Assembly: GCA_963718525.1 (NCBI GenBank)
Contig: OY970355.1
Coordinates: 2,240,001-2,304,000 of the forward strand
Direction: 5' to 3'
DNA: 64,000 nucleotides
Source: Candidatus Dormiibacterota bacterium
GTDB taxonomy: Bacteria > Chloroflexota > Dormibacteria > Aeolococcales > Aeolococcaceae
Shown: positions 1 through 6,037 of the stretch, piece after piece
Numbering within the stretch: the first letter of the stretch is position 1
Layout of the letters: each line of letters begins with the position of its first letter
Position numbers and translations under genes: made by a program
The notes under the pieces: model-generated
The model's database searches: none
What the model was told of the DNA's origin: nothing
The model's input: only the letters and a program-made list of their open reading frames with translations

Positions 1-701
1 ATGGTCCAGGAACTCTGGAGGATTGCCTTGATATTGGTCGCTCCTACGCGGGTGGTGTCCACTTGGGAAGGAAGCAACCCGAGCCGGTCGCGAGCGAGAT
101 GCCAAAGTGGGTTGAAGTCGGCATTTGCGGGCGCAGGGAAATCCATCTCCTGAAGAACGAATTTAGCGACCGCCTCGAGCAAGTCCTTCGCCGACCCGAG
201 TAACTGACCCGGATCATCCGCGGCCCGGCGCAAGCGGTCGAGCTGCTCGTCGAGCGCGTCCCTGCGGCCCGGCGCAAGCGGTCGAGCTGCTCGTCGAGCG
301 CGTCCCTGCCTCCGGTCGCGAGGTCGATGGGCCGATCCGCGTCAAAACGCCGTCGTCGGACAGGATCAGCCAGCGCGACGGAACGCCTGCTGAGCGATCC
401 GGACGGCAGCCGGGTCATGGGTTTCGCTCGCCTTGTCGAAGCAACCGCATACCCGAAGTTCGACCAGGATTGCCTCAACTAAGCTTCGCGCGCGACGTGG
501 CCGTCGGATAGCTGCAGTCAGGACCGTGTGGACACGTGTTTGTTTGTTCGGTGTTTGCGTTGCCCGTGAGTAGGGATCGGCGTCGCCATATCCCGCCCCG
601 GCCACAAAACGGCTGATGGTGGGGTGTGAAGGGCCCGCGCCGCCATAGAAGAAGCGCGCCAATGCAACCGCAACTCCGTCACTCACAGGAGCTTCGCCCA
701 T
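1..701 (-). pseudogene. Abortive-infection family (Abi_C-like) protein, disrupted; runs off the left window edge
   Basis: ATG at 701 gives MGEAPVSDGVAVALARFFYGGAGPSH..QQAFRRAG, stop at 366-368. Other frames continue LSDDGVLTRIG, IDLATGGRDALDEQLDRLRRA and ADDPGQLLGSAKDLLEAVAKFVLQ..LWHLARDRLG..ILQSSWT, which I recall as an actinobacterial abortive-infection family. Broken by about two 1-bp shifts (~367, ~330) and a 44-bp duplication. Confidence 0.65.
220..307. repeat. Perfect 44-bp tandem duplication
   Basis: gcggcccggcgcaagcggtcgagctgctcgtcgagcgcgtccct at 220-263 and 264-307. Confidence 0.95.
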
Positions 702-1143
702 GGCTTCATTCTCCCTCGTGGTTGGCCGCTGGCATCGAGCCGAGCGATCGTCCCAAAAGTAGTTGCGGCGAATCACGACCGGTCGAGCCGACTTGCGGGG
801 AAGGCGGGTTTCGATGGTGGAGCAGGGCGCCATGTCAACTCCCTTGAGAAGCGAGCTTGGTCTCGCTACGGCCAGGGTCGGAATACGAACCAGCATTGAC
901 CTGGGGACCAGGTTTCGGGGCTCTGCACGAGGCGCGATACGACGTTTGTTCGTTGAAAGTCGGCTGGCGTCCAGGCGGGATTCGGACTTAGACGCTACCG
1001 AACGGCGGCCCATGGGTCCTGTCACCGGACCCGCAGCGGCCAAGAGTTTGACGGCGCCGACGGTCACTTCGGCGCGCGGGATGCCCGCGGACGAACGATC
1101 AGCCCGGAAGAGGCGATCAGTTCGGGGGGCGCTGGCTGTCGAA

Positions 1144-1292
1144 GCGAATCCACCGGATTCCAACAAGCACGATCTAGCCGTCATTCCAACCATTTCCCGA
1201 CGAAAGCCCTCCAACTCGAACTCAATCCGCATCGGGAAATAAGGACTAGTCTGGGGGACCAGGAGTAGCAGGTTCGAGTCCTGTCTCCCCGA
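1144..1292 (+). repeat. att-like junction copy 1 (~150-bp imperfect direct repeat of 7567-7714)
   Basis: gcgaatc..ggattccaa..cacgatctagccgtcattccaacc..cgaaagccct..tcgaactca..gaaataaggact followed by a tRNA 3' half, colinear with 7567-7714. Confidence 0.9.
1246..1292 (+). pseudogene. 3' half of tRNA-Pro(GGG), att core, slightly degenerate
   Basis: ctagt-ctGGGgg-accag anticodon arm (one mismatch), gcagg-ttcgagt-cctgt T arm, ctccccga. No D arm or intact 5' acceptor strand. Confidence 0.85.
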
Positions 1293-2538
1293 TTCGCAGC
1301 CCTTTGCAGGGCAGTGCAGCCTTGTCCAGCCAATTCCACCCCCAGTGATGTCCCGTAGTGTGGTGTAAATCCGGGGTGACCCCAGCGCTGCCGACGAGGT
1401 AGACAAAGAAGGCCACCGCGGAGTTCTCTTGGAAGCTCTTACCCAAACCAGGAGACCCACGATGGCCCAGAACAGGATGATGCCCCCGGCACTGCTCGAG
1501 CAACTCCAGGGCGCAGACACGGACGTGTTGCGGCGCGTCCTCGAACACGCTATGCAGCGCTTGATCGAAGCCGAGGCGTCCACCCAGATCGGCGCCGGCC
1601 CGCACGAGCGAGCTTCAACGCGCACCACGTACCGCAACGGCTATCGGGAGCGGATCCTCGACACCGGCTCGGGACGCCTCGAGCTGCAGATCCCCAAGCT
1701 GCGCACGGGGAGCTTCTTCCCGACCTTGCTCGAGCCGCGACGGCGTATTGATCGGGCCCTGCTGGCGGCGGTCCAGGAGGCCTACGTGCTCGGCATCAGC
1801 ACTCGCAAGGTCGACGATCTCATGGCTGCGCTGGGCGGCTGCAGCATCAGTCGCAGCGAGGTGAGCAGGATCTGCGCCCTGCTCGACGAGGAGCTCGCCG
1901 AGTTCCGGGAGCGCCCCCTCGATGAGCCGTACCCGTACGTGTGGTTCGACGCCACGTACGAGAAGGTGCGTCAGGGCGCCCGCATCGTCAGCCAGGCGGC
2001 GGTGGTGGCGGTGGGCGTGCGCGACACCGGCGAGAAGAGCGTGCTCGGCCTCGCCATTGGTGCCAGCGAGACCGAGGCCTTCTGGCTGGAGTTCTGCCGC
2101 AGCCTGGCCCGGCGCGGGCTGAGCGGCGTACAGCTGGTCATCTCCGACGCCCACGAAGGGCTGCGCAGTGCCTTGTCCCAGGTGTTCGCCGGCGCGACCT
2201 GGCAGCGCTGCAAGGTGCACTTCCTCCGCAACGTGGCCAGCGCGGTCCCCAAGCTGCACGCGCCGGCGGTGCTCGCGGTGGTGAAGTCGATCTTCCTGCA
2301 GCCCACTCGCGAGACTTCCCGTGACGCCGTGAACCACGCGCTCAGCGTCTTGGAGCCACGCTTCCCAACTGTGGCTGCCAAGCTCCGCGCCGCTGAGGCC
2401 GATGTGCTCGCCTATCTGGACTTCCCGGTCGACCACTGGCGCTCGATCTCTTCGACCAATGCCATCGAGCGCGTCAACGCCGAGCTCGATCGTCGCGCCA
2501 AGGTGGTGGGCATCTTCCTGCGTCTGTACGCTCTCCCG

Positions 2539-2722
2539 TGGCAGTGGCGGAAGCACCGCTGTTGCTGCGAGGCTCCCGTGGGGCCGAGGGTGACCCGGCA
2601 TTTTTCTGTCGAGCCCTCGGGCTCTGACCTGGTTAGGGCCAGTCCCCTCGGTCTTCGCGGGTGGCCGAGTGACCTCATAGCGGCGTGAATACTGAACGGC
2701 AGGAATGTCCGAGGCCATCCAC
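2539..2722 (+). ncRNA. Predicted IS110 bridge RNA (5' hairpin, target-binding loop, donor-binding loop); ends approximate
   Basis: Hairpin 2541-2565. Stem ccgaggg(2584-2590)/ccctcgg(2645-2651) encloses GGCATTTTTC(2597-2606), inner hairpin 2611-2624 and GTTAGGG(2632-2638). Stem gggtggcc(2659-2666)/ggccatcc(2713-2720) encloses CATAGCGGCG(2676-2685) and GCAGG(2699-2703). Confidence 0.85.
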
Positions 2723-2746
2723 CCATCAACACCACGGAGGGTCGGC

Positions 2747-3802
2747 ATGGTCATCATCGGCATCGATTGCCACACAAGGGTTCATGTGGCTGCAGCCATT
2801 GACGGATCGGGGCAGGTCTGTGCGCGCTTCACAGCGGGTGCCAAGGCTGAGGAGCTCGAAGCGCTCACAAGGTGGGCGTGCCAACAAGCAGCCGGCCTGA
2901 TCGCCGTCGAGGGCGCACGAGGCTTTGGCCTCGCGCTCACTCGATGCCTCCTCGCCGCTGGCTTGGAGGTCGTCGATGTCCCAACGCACATGACCGCTGA
3001 CGGGCGCCGTCAGAGCCGCCGTCCGGGAAAGGACGATGAGAGCGATGCGGTGGTCATCGCGCGAGTTGCACTACGTGAACACGACCTGCCGCGGTTGCGT
3101 CCGGCGCATCTTGACTCGGATCTCAAACTGCTGGTGGACGCACGCGATCAGGTTGTTGCAGAAGGCACTCGTGTACGCAACCGGCTGCATGCGCTGCTGC
3201 TCACCGTGTCGCCCGGCTACCGCGATCACACCGGCGCTCTGTCGAGCAAGCGCGCACTCATCGTCGCTCGTCGCTTGGTGCTCCGAGCACGAGCGGCAGA
3301 TCCGGTTCGCTGCCGCCTGGCCCTTGCAGCCATTCGCCAACTCCACGCCATCGATGCTGAAGCAGCCGGGCTGGAGGGCGAGATCAAACAAGCCGTGAGC
3401 GCAAGGCACCCGAAGCAGCTGCTCGCCATTTGCGGTGTGAGCACGCTGGTGGCCGGCAAGCTCCTCGGTGAGGCCCACGACATCACACGCTTCCCGACGG
3501 CGGCGTCGTTCGCAGCCCACGCTGGCGCCGCCCCGCTTCCGGCATCGAGCGGCGTCACGCGGCGACACCGTCTCAACCGAGGCGGCAACCGTCAACTCAA
3601 CCGAGCCCTCTTCACGATCGCCATGGTGCAGGCACGCTGGCACCCTGGAGCGGTCGCCTATCTGGAGCGAAAACGTGGCGAAGGCAAGCGACCCGCCGAA
3701 GCGCGACGCTGCCTCATGCGCCACCTTGCGGGTGTCGTCCACCGCGCCATGTTCCTCGACGCGACCGCGGTCAGCGCGAGTTCGGCCATGCCTGCCGCTT
3801 GA
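2747..3802 (+). CDS. IS110 DEDD recombinase/transposase
   Basis: MVIIGIDCH, AVEG, GKDDESDA (RuvC-like DEDD), PLPASSG (catalytic Ser region), RLNRGGNRQLNRAL; RBS ggagg at 2736-2740. Confidence 0.93.
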   Translation: MVIIGIDCHTRVHVAAAIDGSGQVCARFTAGAKAEELEALTRWACQQAAGLIAVEGARGFGLALTRCLLAAGLEVVDVPTHMTADGRRQSRRPGKDDESDAVVIARVALREHDLPRLRPAHLDSDLKLLVDARDQVVAEGTRVRNRLHALLLTVSPGYRDHTGALSSKRALIVARRLVLRARAADPVRCRLALAAIRQLHAIDAEAAGLEGEIKQAVSARHPKQLLAICGVSTLVAGKLLGEAHDITRFPTAASFAAHAGAAPLPASSGVTRRHRLNRGGNRQLNRALFTIAMVQARWHPGAVAYLERKRGEGKRPAEARRCLMRHLAGVVHRAMFLDATAVSASSAMPAA

Positions 3803-3804
3803 CA
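3799..3804 (+). promoter_or_regulatory. -35 box (TTGACA) of the IS110 circle-junction promoter; -10 TACGCT at 2527-2532
   Basis: On circularisation the junction reads TTGACA-tagcggcg-CC-tgcgtctg-TACGCT, an 18-bp spacer. Confidence 0.75.
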
Positions 3805-4342
3805 TAGCGGCGCCCCAACAGCGCCTCACTGCTGCGGCTGTTCACCGCGGTGCTCCAGGACCAGCACGACGAGTGGCAGGACGGCCGCCGTCACTTCAGT
3901 CAGCAGTCGATGGCTCGCGTTTTGCACCCCGACGGTCCGCCCTTGCTCACCAACCCACTCACGGAGGGACTGGTCGCGTAGTTCACCGACGTTGTGAGAA
4001 CTCCACCGAATTCACACCACTACCGGGGACTTGACCCCACCCCCTTCCAACTTTCGGGGATCAGTCACTGTGCAGGGACTAGTCCTTATTCGCTAATTGA
4101 TGGCCTTTCCTGCAAAACCACTCTAATGTCGTGCGGCCAAACGGCGATGTCCCGAGCGGGGCGCGACGCTCGCTTCGGGCCATTGCTTGGCGCGCCGCGG
4201 TCGGAAATGCGGCTGCGACTGAACATCCGTTCACCCGGATTGAACGCCTTGATGAGTGACGCCAAGGCGACCGGAGTGATGCTCTAGCAACCGGCCCTAC
4301 CGTACTCGGCCTTAATCGGCGGCGAGAGCAAAGGAGGTAATC

Positions 4343-6037
4343 ATGGAACCTCACGATTGCCACCGGATCTGGAGGGGCAGGTCGCGTAAGTTCGCGGCTC
4401 TGGCCGCGGTAATGTTGGGGTCGGCGGTGGTGGGCGCAAGACCTGCCTCGGCGACGACATTCACTGTGTGCGGCAGTGGATGTGCTTACAGTCAGATTGG
4501 TGCTGCGGTCGCAGCTGCGAGCAGGGGCGACACAGTGAGCATCGGCCCTGGCAAATACGTCGGCGGTTTCACGATCGACCAAAGCGTGAGCCTCGTCGGC
4601 GCTGGCGCCCATGAGACGACGATCAGCGGCGGGGGGCCGGTGATCACGGTCGGGAAGTTCGGGGCCAAGACTGAGCCCACAGTCGCGCTCCGCGACCTAA
4701 CGATCACCGGTGGCGTGACGGCGTCGAGCCCGGTGTCGATTGCGTATGTCGCCAAAGCAGGAGTGCTTGCCCTAGGAGGGGGTATCTTCGTCCCGCCCGC
4801 CGCAAAGTTCGCCGCGGGCGCGACTTTCACGGTCAGCGACAGCGTCATCACGGGCAATATCGCCGCAGCGACCGCGTCCGTCGACGCCGGCTTCTCATGT
4901 GGGACGCACGACTGCCGATTCGCCATAGCCGGCGGTGGCGGGATCGACAACTGGGGCCTTCTGACGGTCGAGAACACGATCGTCAGCAACAACGAGTTGG
5001 CAGGAGCGGTCACGAGTGACGCCGACGGAGCCGGTATTTACACGCAGCAAGGCGCAATCACCCTGAAGAACAGCGTCGTGACCGGCAACCGTGCGATGGC
5101 GATCGCTCCGGACGGCCGCTTTGCCGAGGGCGCGGGCATCATGGTCGACACGACCTTCTCGGCCGGAGCTTGCACGCCCTGCACCCTGTCTGTTCAAAAC
5201 AGCATCGTGCGCGACAACAACTCAAGTCTCGTCAACAACACTCTGCCTTCCTCCGTGGGAGCGCAGTCTGGGATGAATGCCAACGCCGGCGGCATACATG
5301 TGGGTGACGGCATTCCCACGACGGTCAAGAACACGGCGATCGATGACAACTCAGCGACTGCAATCGATCGACGAGGCGAGGCGCTCGGCATCGACGCCGG
5401 CATGATCGTCGGGTACAGTCCGCTCATCATGCAGAACACTCAGATCGACGACAACCGGTCGACGACGACAGTGCTGACTTCGACCGATGTGGGGCCAGCA
5501 GGCAGCGCTCTCGAACTCGATGGGGGCGGCACGATCAGCGGCACGAGCATCGATGACAACCTCGCGATCTCAACAAGTTCGGGTGGCTTAGCCGACACGA
5601 ACGGTGGCTTGGCCATTTTCTACTTTGGCAATCTCGGCGGGGCGCAGCTAGTGACCGTGCGAGACAGTGATATCAGCGGCAATGTCACCGAGTCGTTCAG
5701 CAAGACAGGCTCAGCCCAGATCGAGGGCGGTGCGGTCTTCAACAACAGCTTGCTCGTGATGCGCAACGATCGCGTGAGCGACAACGTCGGGCGAGCGGAG
5801 GCGCCGACCGGTGTGGCCCAAGGGGGAGGCACCTGGAACGGGGTCGACGCGAGCACGGGCGCCAGCCCTCCGGCTCAGCTGACCCTCGAGAACACGAGCG
5901 TCACCCACAACGCCCTCGAAGGAGGCGCAGGCGTGACTCTTCAAGGCGGTGGCATCTTCACGGAGTCTCCGGCAACGCTCACGCTCACCAACACGCAAAT
6001 CGCGTTCAACCGCCCGGACCAGTGCTTCGGGTGCTGA
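4343..6037 (+). CDS. Secreted right-handed beta-helix (pectin-lyase-like fold) protein
   Basis: RBS aaggaggt; signal peptide ending ASA; YSQIGAAVAAASRGDTVSIGPGKY start motif; repeated GGGI..N..LT...S.V..N units. Confidence 0.75.
   Translation: MEPHDCHRIWRGRSRKFAALAAVMLGSAVVGARPASATTFTVCGSGCAYSQIGAAVAAASRGDTVSIGPGKYVGGFTIDQSVSLVGAGAHETTISGGGPVITVGKFGAKTEPTVALRDLTITGGVTASSPVSIAYVAKAGVLALGGGIFVPPAAKFAAGATFTVSDSVITGNIAAATASVDAGFSCGTHDCRFAIAGGGGIDNWGLLTVENTIVSNNELAGAVTSDADGAGIYTQQGAITLKNSVVTGNRAMAIAPDGRFAEGAGIMVDTTFSAGACTPCTLSVQNSIVRDNNSSLVNNTLPSSVGAQSGMNANAGGIHVGDGIPTTVKNTAIDDNSATAIDRRGEALGIDAGMIVGYSPLIMQNTQIDDNRSTTTVLTSTDVGPAGSALELDGGGTISGTSIDDNLAISTSSGGLADTNGGLAIFYFGNLGGAQLVTVRDSDISGNVTESFSKTGSAQIEGGAVFNNSLLVMRNDRVSDNVGRAEAPTGVAQGGGTWNGVDASTGASPPAQLTLENTSVTHNALEGGAGVTLQGGGIFTESPATLTLTNTQIAFNRPDQCFGC

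Follow-up and report, generated by a model that had tools for sequence, protein, structure and literature searches.

We consider it very probable that an IS110-family element in the window, by which we mean the whole stretch of 64,000 nucleotides analyzed here, has its recombinase aimed into conserved codons of IS256-family transposase genes by a bridge RNA from its own 5' non-coding region, and, with the same confidence in the two statements taken jointly, that this element is active or was so very recently. The observations that carry this reading are the anatomy of the insertion, the covariation within the RNA, the covariation of the guides with the targets and with the element's ends, the recurrence of one site among relatives, independent insertions, and empty alleles. 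The host element and the two parts of its gene are positioned as follows.

1344-4036, plus strand: host IS256-family element, 2693 bp with the insert and about 1397 bp without it (inverted-repeat alignment, PF00872)
1336-1343, no strand: left target-site duplication of the host IS256, CCACCCCC, 8 bp, with the same octamer at 4037-4044
1345-1374 and 4006-4035: imperfect terminal inverted repeats of the host IS256 element (inverted-repeat alignment)
1462-2518, plus strand: 5' part of the IS256 transposase gene, codons 1-352 and the first base of a Pro codon
3814-3981, plus strand: 3' part of the IS256 transposase gene, residues 353-407 and the stop codon
4037-4044, no strand: right target-site duplication of the host IS256, directly beyond the end of IS256 similarity

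Members of the IS256 family have imperfect terminal inverted repeats and a target duplication of 8-9 bp, and the host element was found to have a Mutator-type transposase, inverted repeats and the 8-bp duplication CCACCCCC, with similarity to three other IS256 copies that starts at 1344 and ends at 4036-4052. The domain search matched the N-terminal part of the transposase to PF00872 with an E value of 2.8e-115, and tblastn placed residues 1-352 before the insert and residues 353-407 after it (3814-3978, 100%). The last bases of the 5' part are GTG GTG GGC ATC TTC C, and the insertion interrupts the transposase reading frame at a point 1173 bp from the left and 222 bp from the right end of the IS256 element. 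The function of the transposase has probably been lost through the removal of its last 55 residues. Annotation pipelines record only "IS110 family transposase" next to unexplained IS256 fragments.

The inserted element and the sequences at its junctions were delimited as listed here.

2519-3812, plus strand: IS110-family element proper, 1294 bp (identical second copy, empty-site contigs and intact IS256 twin)
2509-2518, plus strand: left target GGCATCTT including the core CC (2517-2518), from the sequence GGC ATC TTC C
2747-3802, plus strand: IS110-family recombinase gene, 351 aa, alignment with relatives beginning at the ATG
3813-3819, plus strand: second copy of the core CC (3813-3814) and right target CCAAC (sequence and flank comparison)

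The left end of the element starts with TGCG from 2519, and its right end, ...CATAGCGGCG, finishes at 3812, with CC next to it at 3813-3814 and then CCAAC at 3815-3819. Once rebuilt, the empty site reads GGC ATC TTC CCC AAC, corresponding to VVGIF/PN of the IS256-family transposase (the slash marks the insertion), and 1296 bp have been added to it when one copy of the core is counted. The CC core, single in the empty site, now flanks the insert on either side (2517-2518, 3813-3814). The recombinase gene, with GGAGGG at 2736-2741 upstream of its ATG, encodes the domains PF01548 (residues 4-156, E 5.8e-25) and PF02371 (residues 224-305, E 2.8e-19), and the candidate catalytic residues D7, E55, D96/D97/D100 and S267/S268 were invariant in an alignment with 6 relatives. 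Bridge-RNA elements of the IS110 group have a circular intermediate in which the joined ends form a promoter for the RNA. In a hypothetical circle of this kind, the hexamers TTGACA (3799-3804) and TACGCT (2527-2532) would have a spacing of 18 nt, and the -10-like hexamer is not kept in relatives; no back-joined contig with the circle junction of right end (RE) and left end (LE) was seen among the soil-metagenome contigs compared, a kind of material which cannot prove absence.

The genome carries two IS110 copies, identical over 1297 of 1298 bases, and the second one, of the kind that the initial annotation had thought worth looking for, likewise lies in the GIFPN codons of an IS256 gene. The two occupied IS256 copies are 89.3% alike and represent two subfamilies, and each of them is paired in the same genome with a near-identical intact twin, which represents the empty site. 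The two halves of the window IS256 were 99.91% (over 1175 nt) and 100% (over 222 nt) identical to the intact twin L004, in which they abut without a gap, and the halves of the second occupied IS256, also abutting, were 99.57% and 97.75% identical to its own twin. In addition, in 3 of the 4 soil runs compared, metagenome contigs join 2516 to 3813 and skip exactly 1296 bp, with a 2-base ambiguity. The exact coordinates, the intact twin and the empty-site contigs, together with the relatives described below, confirmed the first reading of the window as an IS110 insert in the GIFPN codons of an IS256 gene and show that it is no chance match. The genome has three target sites, identical or nearly so, that remain unoccupied, suggesting low activity or recent arrival of the element.

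The 5' non-coding region of the element was found to encode a predicted RNA with two hairpins, the parts of which are given below.

2519-2746, plus strand: 5' non-coding region encoding the predicted bridge RNA, 228 nt (covariation, 22 sequences)
2581-2654, plus strand: target-binding stem-loop, outer stem 2581-2594 with 2642-2654 and inner stem 2608-2615 with 2620-2628
2597-2606, plus strand: left target guide (LTG) GGCAUUUUUC, in DNA GGCATTTTTC, of top-strand sense, last two bases facing the core
2632-2638, plus strand: right target guide (RTG) GUUAGGG, reverse complement of CC-CTAAC
2660-2719, plus strand: donor-binding stem-loop, stem 2660-2673 with 2707-2719
2676-2685, plus strand: left donor guide (LDG) CAUAGCGGCG, the same as the element's RE (3803-3812)
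2698-2703, plus strand: right donor guide (RDG) GGCAGG, complementary to core plus LE, CCTGCG

The results from RNAalifold and pair counts over the 22 sequences showed 32 pairs with 98.9% of cells paired, 11 of the pairs having compensatory changes, while slid controls gave at most 3 and the observed pairing was reached by 0 of 500 shuffles. An Rfam scan of positions 1200-4300 at E values up to 1 left the non-coding region unmatched and returned two sub-threshold hits at chance level, both elsewhere. The LTG and RTG are located on the 5' side and the 3' side, respectively, of one internal loop, at the positions initially proposed for them, and they match the occupied target at 8 of 10 and 6 of 7 positions. 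According to the account of the IS621 bridge RNA in PMC11208160, the loop carries the left target in the same sense on its 5' side and the complement of the right target on its 3' side, the core included in each case, and the positions and strand orientation of the window guides agree with this rule. The LDG is the same as the RE in 23 of 24 distinct elements, and the RDG is complementary to core plus LE in all 23 distinct elements, as GGCAGG with CCTGCG in 16 and as GACAGG with CCTGTG in 7.

Relatives of the element were fetched by the recombinase alone (recombinases 58-95% identical), and they were found in the same IS256 codons, in line with the recurrence that the initial annotation had expected among close homologues. 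The right junction continues as CCCN(A/G)A(C/T), the same codons, in 42 of the 46 readable cases (37 distinct flanks), and the left junction ends in GGN ATY TTY C, again the same codons, in 25 of 29 (21 distinct flanks), the metagenome loci among these possibly being in part redundant populations. The relatives at this site are spread over many soil actinobacteria of many genera, a named example being the plasmid NZ_CP060403.1 of Microbacterium sp. YJN-G; recombinases only 59-67% identical to that of the window use the same site, and the host IS256 families are only 40-57% identical in protein. Among 23 sampled IS256 genes, the GIFPN 15-mer ranked 1 of 1300 windows for nucleotide conservation, a near tie in a small sample (1.214 vs 1.206 and 1.200 bits, with L099 unaligned at the motif), and 12 of the 23 genes were compatible with the guides under the mismatch tolerance found in nature.

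One alternative is that a single ancient insertion took place and the composite was then spread by IS256 transposition in trans, for which the host IS256 retains both terminal repeats and the 8-bp duplication and for which intact copies could supply transposase. Between the loci L050 and L077, identity is 99.0% for the IS110 and 100% for the IS256, as such spread would produce, although they may be one locus sampled twice. However, IS110 copies that are 96-100% identical occur in IS256 genes that are only 60-89% identical (e.g., 99.6% vs 64.1% for L060 and L072), and in this genome each occupied IS256 is nearest to a different intact copy. Because near-identical IS110 copies occupy diverged IS256 hosts, we favor repeated homing and regard hitch-hiking on IS256 as highly improbable.

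The apparent specificity could also be a filter, with the element inserting widely and only the insertions in dispensable genes such as transposase genes persisting. IS256 insertions should indeed be neutral for the host, and among the four right junctions outside IS256 codons (L052, L087, L089 and L094), the last three lie there without a known guide change. This explanation has to be set against the finding that all IS256 insertions are at one nucleotide position, in one orientation, at a site matching the guides, and that the guides change along with the site in L052 and, in another lineage, in L128. Moreover, the outgroup IS110 elements (36-40% identity) had no IS256 alongside in 21 of 24 loci, and those with multiple copies insert elsewhere at their own short motifs in varied contexts. 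There is therefore only a slim chance that the pattern reflects survivorship, and guided insertion at the GIFPN codons is the reading we retain.

Among the exceptions, the locus L052 is nested in the clade (SH-aLRT 96), with a recombinase 66% identical to that of the window, and has the flanks GGGGTGTTCC on the left and CCTAAAC on the right and the guides GGGGUGUUUC and GUUUAGG, both of which have changed to match the other target. Its target was at one point labeled a tRNA-like site, a label that rested only on a downstream GGTTCGAATCC motif and was rejected when ARAGORN gave no tRNA on the rebuilt empty site; it should be read as a non-IS256 site. ARAGORN also gave no tRNA in positions 1-6000 of the window. 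If the recombinase protein itself read the IS256 sequence, the complementarity in the non-coding region being a by-product, full pairing would not be required, as the guide mismatches show it is not, and nothing more specific speaks for this. On the other hand, recombinases of 59-67% identity share the site while the nested L052, at 66%, uses another site with changed guides, and the structure and guide positions fit the IS621 model, which makes protein-directed recognition very hard to credit. The earlier proposal of RNA-guided homing to IS256 is thus supported by the site recurrence, the diverged hosts and the covariation of guides and target in L052, whereas nothing was found that speaks for IS256 as a vehicle, a role it had mentioned as possible.

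The guides of the window differ from the occupied target at three places, with U for C at the third base of the Ile codon (Ile3), U for C at Phe3, with which the CC core begins, and A of the RTG facing C at Pro3, which is an A.C mismatch and not a wobble. All three differences fall on third codon positions, as first noted, and no observed occupied target is matched perfectly by its guides. Of the 18 distinct left flanks, 15 were scored with a mismatch at LTG position 3 (13 of the 16 aligning without indel), and 15 of 21 distinct right flanks had one at RTG position 4. The window lineage would need more mismatch tolerance than IS621, since IS621 showed poor tolerance of mismatches in the screen described in PMC11208160.

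These differences could be adaptive, in that guide bases at synonymous positions were selected to be promiscuous (U reading A or G, and G reading C or U), so that the RNA would in effect read a peptide motif. Outside the two fixed positions, the non-matches in indel-free flanks are U.G wobbles, the one exception being L065 (guide C vs target T at Ile3), and such wobbles occur at Phe3 in 16 of 18 left flanks, at Ile3 in the window sub-lineage, and at the first Asn/Asp base in 3 of 21 right flanks. The sister lineage that targets IS481 (LTG GGACUAAUGG vs AGACCAACGG, RTG CUUUGC vs GCAAGG) also has three U.G pairs, all at third codon positions, and the occupied alleles include both TTC and TTT and both AAC and GAC. 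However, differences confined to synonymous sites are expected for any guide, because the target is held constant at the protein level. At four-fold sites the guide has A, a base that pairs with hardly any of the GC-rich alleles found there, and at Pro3, where G could read both C and T, A is nevertheless the commoner state. The initial annotation was right in placing the guide U's at third positions, while the idea that they are an adaptation to ATY and TTY codons is doubtful, for the U opposite Phe3 occupies the first core position and L052 retains it despite the non-IS256 target, and the Ile3 U is derived and present only in the window sub-lineage, all three hosts of which have ATC, whereas relatives have C, a perfect match to ATC. 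We therefore think adaptive degeneracy of the guides unlikely, with perhaps some room for it.

In the mechanism we propose, the bridge RNA would be transcribed from the 5' non-coding region of the element and would direct the recombinase. [quoted passage not shown] By the same analogy, the element would recombine as a circle RE-CC-LE with a 15-bp site GGN ATY TTY CCN RAY, which encodes G-I-F-P-N/D in IS256-family transposase genes. Variation of the site, almost all of it at third positions, may be tolerated as U.G wobbles or as mismatches at the two fixed guide positions, and owing to this tolerance a single guide pair could give access to many diverged IS256 families across numerous genera of actinobacteria. 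The IS256 would serve as a harmless, multicopy, horizontally travelling landing pad, with the end of its transposase cut off, and the IS110 element looks like a parasite of a parasite.

Other IS110 lineages were found with targets in IS256 at HWR/QI and NKEI/KRR and in IS481 at PQTNG/KAER, and a lineage C (L022) has an 8-nt LTG match, as a single instance on a long branch in which a convincing RTG was looked for and not found. It is conceivable, and we put it forward tentatively as something short of probable, that there has been a radiation of actinobacterial IS110 elements specialized as RNA-guided parasites of insertion sequences, in which each lineage settled on its own block of conserved codons, close to the part of a DDE transposase gene that encodes the catalytic region (IS256 HWR/QI, NKEI/KRR and GIF/PN; IS481 PQTNG/KAER) and the guides kept reading through synonymous variation.

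Homing endonuclease genes, inteins, and group I and group II introns occupy conserved codons of essential or conserved genes. The window element resembles them as a selfish element at the most conserved coding part of its host gene, where third-position tolerance allows spread between diverged hosts; it differs in that it uses a guide RNA and a recombinase, with no splicing to restore the host gene, and that the host gene is itself selfish. Within the IS110/IS1111 family, IS4321 and IS5075 reportedly occupy terminal repeats of Tn21-family transposons, as IS1383 does the inverted repeats of IS1384, so that a specific target inside another mobile element is shared with these, but each of them has its target in non-coding terminal repeats that belong to a single element family, while the target here is a set of conserved transposase codons in many IS256 families.

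Similar to the bridge-RNA elements of the IS621/IS110 group, as these are presented in Durrant et al. 2024 (PMC11208160), the window element has a DEDD/RuvC-like plus Tnp recombinase and a 5' non-coding RNA with two internal loops, and putatively has no terminal inverted repeats. It differs from IS621 in having the core CC instead of CT and in targeting a protein-coding motif of another insertion sequence instead of a REP element (PMC11208160), and its lineage's occupied natural targets regularly have one to three non-matches at fixed positions. For the IS1111/IS110 seekRNA elements, Siddiquee et al. 2024 (PMC11187229) name attC sites, REP sequences and a short linear site as targets, in contrast to the IS256 codons targeted here. 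No published description of an IS110 element homing into IS256 codons was found, the term 'IS256' being absent from the main texts of PMC11208160, PMC11187229 and 10.64898/2026.08.14.744561, and the supplementary target motifs or logos of the first two could hold such a case.

Bridge-RNA recombinases are under development as genome editors, and what is understood of how they choose targets in nature comes mainly from REP sequences, attC sites and transposon ends. The elements described here provide a clear case of one insertion sequence parasitizing another across many genera, and a natural data set on the mismatches and wobbles accepted in vivo, including the fixed positions, the U.G pairs, and a first core base that can differ between donor and target. 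If the proposed radiation is true, the elements would spread wherever the IS256 and IS481 families go, and IS110 elements could be natural, drive-like suppressors of IS256 and IS481 expansions, a possible brake that would be relevant to the plasticity of actinobacterial genomes.

The IS110 element lies inside the transposase gene of a complete IS256-family element (PF00872, E 2.8e-115), and the coordinates assigned in the initial annotation all proved correct when they were checked against the sequence. The features are as follows.

Features of the nested elements and of the bridge RNA (window positions)
1336-1343 and 4037-4044: 8-bp target duplication of the IS256 element, CCACCCCC
1344-4036: complete IS256-family element, whose terminal inverted repeats (1345-1374, 4006-4035) are imperfect
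1462-2518: IS256 transposase, first part, residues 1-352 (tblastn), ending GTG GTG GGC ATC TTC C
2519-3812: IS110 element, 1294 bp, with CC on either side (2517-2518 and 3813-3814)
2597-2606: left target guide (LTG), first loop, 5' side, GGCAUUUUUC
2632-2638: right target guide (RTG), first loop, 3' side, GUUAGGG
2676-2685: left donor guide (LDG), second loop, CAUAGCGGCG, the same as the IS110 right end at 3803-3812
2698-2703: right donor guide (RDG), second loop, GGCAGG, complementary to core plus left end, CCTGCG
2747-3802: IS110 recombinase, 351 aa, with the two IS110 domains PF01548 (E 5.8e-25) and PF02371 (E 2.8e-19)
From 3814/3815: rest of the IS256 transposase, CC AAC AGC GCC onward, residues 353-407 (tblastn), stop at 3979-3981

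Around these elements, a perfect 14-nt inverted repeat (AATAAGGACTAGTC at 1238-1251 and GACTAGTCCTTATT at 4077-4090) brackets the whole IS256 about 90 and 40 bp beyond its ends, a sub-threshold tRNA-like Rfam match lies at 1233-1292, and at about 223-310 reading of the sequence showed some 44 bp repeated in tandem, with GGCCCGGCGCAAGCGGTCGAGCTGCTCGTCGAGCGCGTCCCTGC present twice.

The 228 nt preceding the recombinase gene were aligned with 21 distinct relatives and gave two stem-loops with an internal loop in each. In a 32-pair version of the structure 98.9% of cells were paired and compensatory changes occurred in 11 pairs, in comparison to 33-50% pairing and compensatory changes in at most 3 pairs when the partners were slid by 1-3 columns, and none of 500 shuffles equalled the observed pairing or covariation score. 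No Rfam match was obtained for the region. Its two-loop guide arrangement is the same as that published for IS621, and mechanistically the element is one of the IS110-group bridge-RNA elements, every testable feature of the family being present. The donor guides follow the ends of the IS110 element itself: the RDG fits the left end in all 23 distinct elements (GGCAGG with CCTGCG, n=16; GACAGG with CCTGTG, n=7), and of 24 LDGs 23 equal the right end, while one, that of the frameshifted copy L017, departs from it.

Relatives were gathered through the recombinase alone and came from species-representative genomes (9 loci), 401 genomes of the phylum (one 67%-identical match), metagenomes (52 loci) and one plasmid record, for a total of 65 loci including the two of the source genome. 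Over these loci the right junction read CCCN(A/G)A(C/T), coding for Pro-Asn/Asp with the IS256 C-terminus next, in 42 of 46 readable cases (37 distinct flanks), and the left junction ended GGN ATY TTY C in 25 of 29 (21 distinct flanks). The exceptions were L087, L089 and L094, with other right flanks, the retargeted L052, L051 and L084, with one-base indels at the junction, and L055, whose contig begins 7 bases before it; the 13 loci without a readable junction are fragments or more distant lineages. Wherever the flank suffices, tblastn with an intact IS256 protein placed the break at residues 352/353. Hosts named in the records of the relatives were Marmoricola, Marihabitans, Arsenicicoccus, Pseudonocardia, Microbacterium, a Nocardioidaceae MAG and a Mycobacteriales MAG. 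The same arrangement was found on a plasmid of Microbacterium sp. YJN-G (NZ_CP060403.1:70700-73200), the gene table of which gives only 'IS110 family transposase' and has no entry for either half of the IS256. In Table 1 for Mycolicibacterium hassiacum, four IS110 starts lie at a fixed 842 or 1463 bp from IS256 entries (PMC10832570); these spacings, of start positions only, would fit nested IS110-in-IS256 copies, which go unremarked by the authors. At one locus (L048:2353-3170) an IS256 C-terminal piece ending DEWAVARR is followed by another IS110 gene, 38-48% identical, with nothing but a donor-loop-like stretch ahead of it; this gene belongs to a truncated element or else marks a further site in the IS256 gene.

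The source genome, a single 3.34-Mb contig, contains four long IS256 genes, two IS256 fragments and two IS110 copies identical over 1297 of 1298 bases, with no PF01548 match besides these two. Both copies lie in GIFPN codons, the two occupied IS256 copies being only 89.3% identical to each other, and for each of them the genome contains, at another place, an intact and nearly identical twin in which the halves abut with no gap (window host, 99.91% for 1175 nt and 100% for 222 nt; second host, 99.57% and 97.75%). The genome also has three empty GIFPN sites, two with GGCATCTTCCCCAAC and one with GGCATCTTTCCCAAC, in comparison to 0 matches for a control pattern. Soil metagenome contigs (two in run X1, one each in X2 and X5) join 2516 to 3813 and thus skip 1296 bp, with two bases fitting either side, indicating a conservative insertion that adds the element and one copy of the 2-nt core; a second empty-site form with T at the first core position was found in one contig each of X1 and X5. 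Where target and donor differ at the first core base, the base of the target is kept at the left junction (T of TTT, or G in the lineage that targets IS481) and that of the donor at the right junction (C and T, respectively), as seen in the second genomic copy (L002:1499-1500 versus 2795-2796), in L046 and L050, and at the L071 junctions. This asymmetry may be of relevance to models of strand exchange or copy-out.

Identity of IS110 and of its IS256 host in pairs of loci
Window / L002: IS110 100%, IS256 host 89.3%
L060 / L062: IS110 100%, IS256 host 84.7%
L060 / L061: IS110 99.6%, IS256 host 81.3%
L060 / L072: IS110 99.6%, IS256 host 64.1%
L011 / L072: IS110 99.1%, IS256 host 61.1%

Near-identical IS110 copies in such far-apart hosts, together with the intact twins, show repeated and independent entry of the IS110 into diverged IS256 genes. 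The only pair alike in both parts was L050/L077 (IS110 99.0%, IS256 100%), which may be one locus sampled twice, and no evidence was found of a composite IS256+IS110 moving as a unit, the vehicle role that had also been raised.

The relation between guides and site can be read in L052 (255-1555), which is nested in the GIFPN clade as sister of L050 (SH-aLRT 96; clade SH-aLRT 100; quick IQ-TREE run, LG+G4, 39 rows). Its flanks are GGGGTGTTCC on the left and CCTAAAC on the right, and its guides are GGGGUGUUUC and GUUUAGG, so that both arms are altered in agreement with the new site; a GGTTCGAATCC motif lies downstream of the insertion, and ARAGORN found no tRNA at the site. In L128, a 53%-identical relative from a second IS110 lineage, the flank is different and the 3' seven bases of the changed LTG match it. 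This covariation suggests that the guides determine the insertion site.

The guides were then compared with 18 distinct left flanks (two with indels) and 21 distinct right flanks. LTG position 3 (Gly3) was mismatched in 13 of the 16 indel-free flanks (15 of 18 when the indel rows are scored too), mostly guide A versus C or G, while the window sub-lineage has a matching C. At position 6 (Ile3) the indel-free flanks gave 13 matches, two U-versus-C wobbles confined to the window sub-lineage, and one C-versus-T mismatch (L065). Position 9 (Phe3, core position 1) was U versus C in 16 of 18 and matched T in two. RTG position 4 (Pro3) was mismatched in 15 of 21, with guide A versus C in the 13 flanks reading CCCCAAC, and 3 of 21 right flanks had a U.G wobble at position 5 (Asn/Asp first base); all remaining positions matched in flanks aligned without indel. 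The pattern described for the window, in which guide and target differ only synonymously, thus generalises: non-matches fall at third codon positions, save for the wobble at the Asn/Asp first base. Whether the guide bases, including the U's, were selected to read through codon degeneracy is a different matter, and we consider it doubtful, since the target varies only where the protein permits and any guide would differ there. In addition, L052 keeps the Phe3 U, opposite C, at a site outside IS256; the Ile3 U is derived, a former match having become a wobble; and at Pro3 guide A is commoner (IS256 alleles fitting it, with CCT, occur in L098, L100 and L101), although G could read C as well as T. 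The guide/target data show instead a tolerance profile, with two fixed mismatch-tolerant positions plus U.G pairs.

Less securely, other IS110 lineages were also found in transposase genes. In the metagenome loci L053, L054 and L056 (L056:125-1475) the IS256 gene holds a second IS110, 31-33% identical to the window recombinase, at LNKEI|KRR, 30 nt 5' of the GIFPN insert, and the RNA of this second IS110 carries AAGGAGAUC and CGCUUGA, exact matches to AAGGAGA-TC-AAGCG; an 87%-identical copy (L127, G365:C4) occupies the same codons of another IS256, in which GIFPT is intact. A 43%-identical IS110 (L022:880-2130, G158:C277) splits an IS256 gene at HWR|QIWSNN, a single case in which the LTG, AUUGGCGG, has an 8-nt match to the flank and no clear RTG was found; on that contig another IS110 follows, some 350 bp downstream. 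The loci L070, L071, L076 and L088 (48-53% identical) make up a sister lineage, which includes L071 (1590-2870), where LZ_Tnp_IS481 and rve in the left flank and rve_3 in the right mark an IS481-family transposase split at PQTNG|KAER; L088 has the same right flank, and L070 and L076 are degraded. In this IS481-targeting lineage there are three guide/target differences, all U.G pairs at third codon positions. The HWR|QIWSNN and IS481 lineages group with the GIFPN clade (SH-aLRT 96), at a join where long branches meet and of the kind against which the IQ-TREE run warned. Among more distant relatives, at 36-40% identity, 21 of 24 loci had no adjoining IS256, and insertion is at short motifs whose surroundings vary.

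IS110/IS1111 elements aimed at other mobile DNA are known: judging from titles, IS4321/IS5075 reportedly insert in the terminal repeats of Tn21 and IS1383 in the inverted repeats of IS1384; these targets are non-coding repeats, whereas the target here consists of conserved transposase codons, common to IS256 families whose proteins are only 40-57% identical. A homing endonuclease or intron placed in conserved codons offers the nearest analogy. No mention of such an IS110 target was found in the literature searched, and 'IS256' is absent from the main texts of PMC11208160, PMC11187229 and 10.64898/2026.08.14.744561; we provisionally regard a conserved-codon target in another element's transposase, shared across IS256 families, as undescribed.

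Conservation of the site was measured in 23 open IS256-family genes, taken from 31 loci across the phylum, two being from the source genome. Of 1300 windows, the 15-nt GIFPN one ranked first in mean nucleotide information (1.214 bits), a near tie with STNAIE (1.206) and WQRC (1.200); one gene (L099) fails to align there. Under natural tolerance the guides fit 12 of the 23 genes, and a strong PF00872 match was present in 43 of 151 genomes searched, a tally that counts an unpublished genome (G038) not otherwise used. Removal of the last 55 residues would probably abolish IS256 function. The central observation of the initial annotation, an IS110 in the GIFPN codons of IS256, is confirmed, and the core of its interpretation as RNA-guided homing is supported. 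Being conserved, multicopy, dispensable to the cell and itself mobile, the site agrees with the reading of IS256 as a safe harbour for the IS110.
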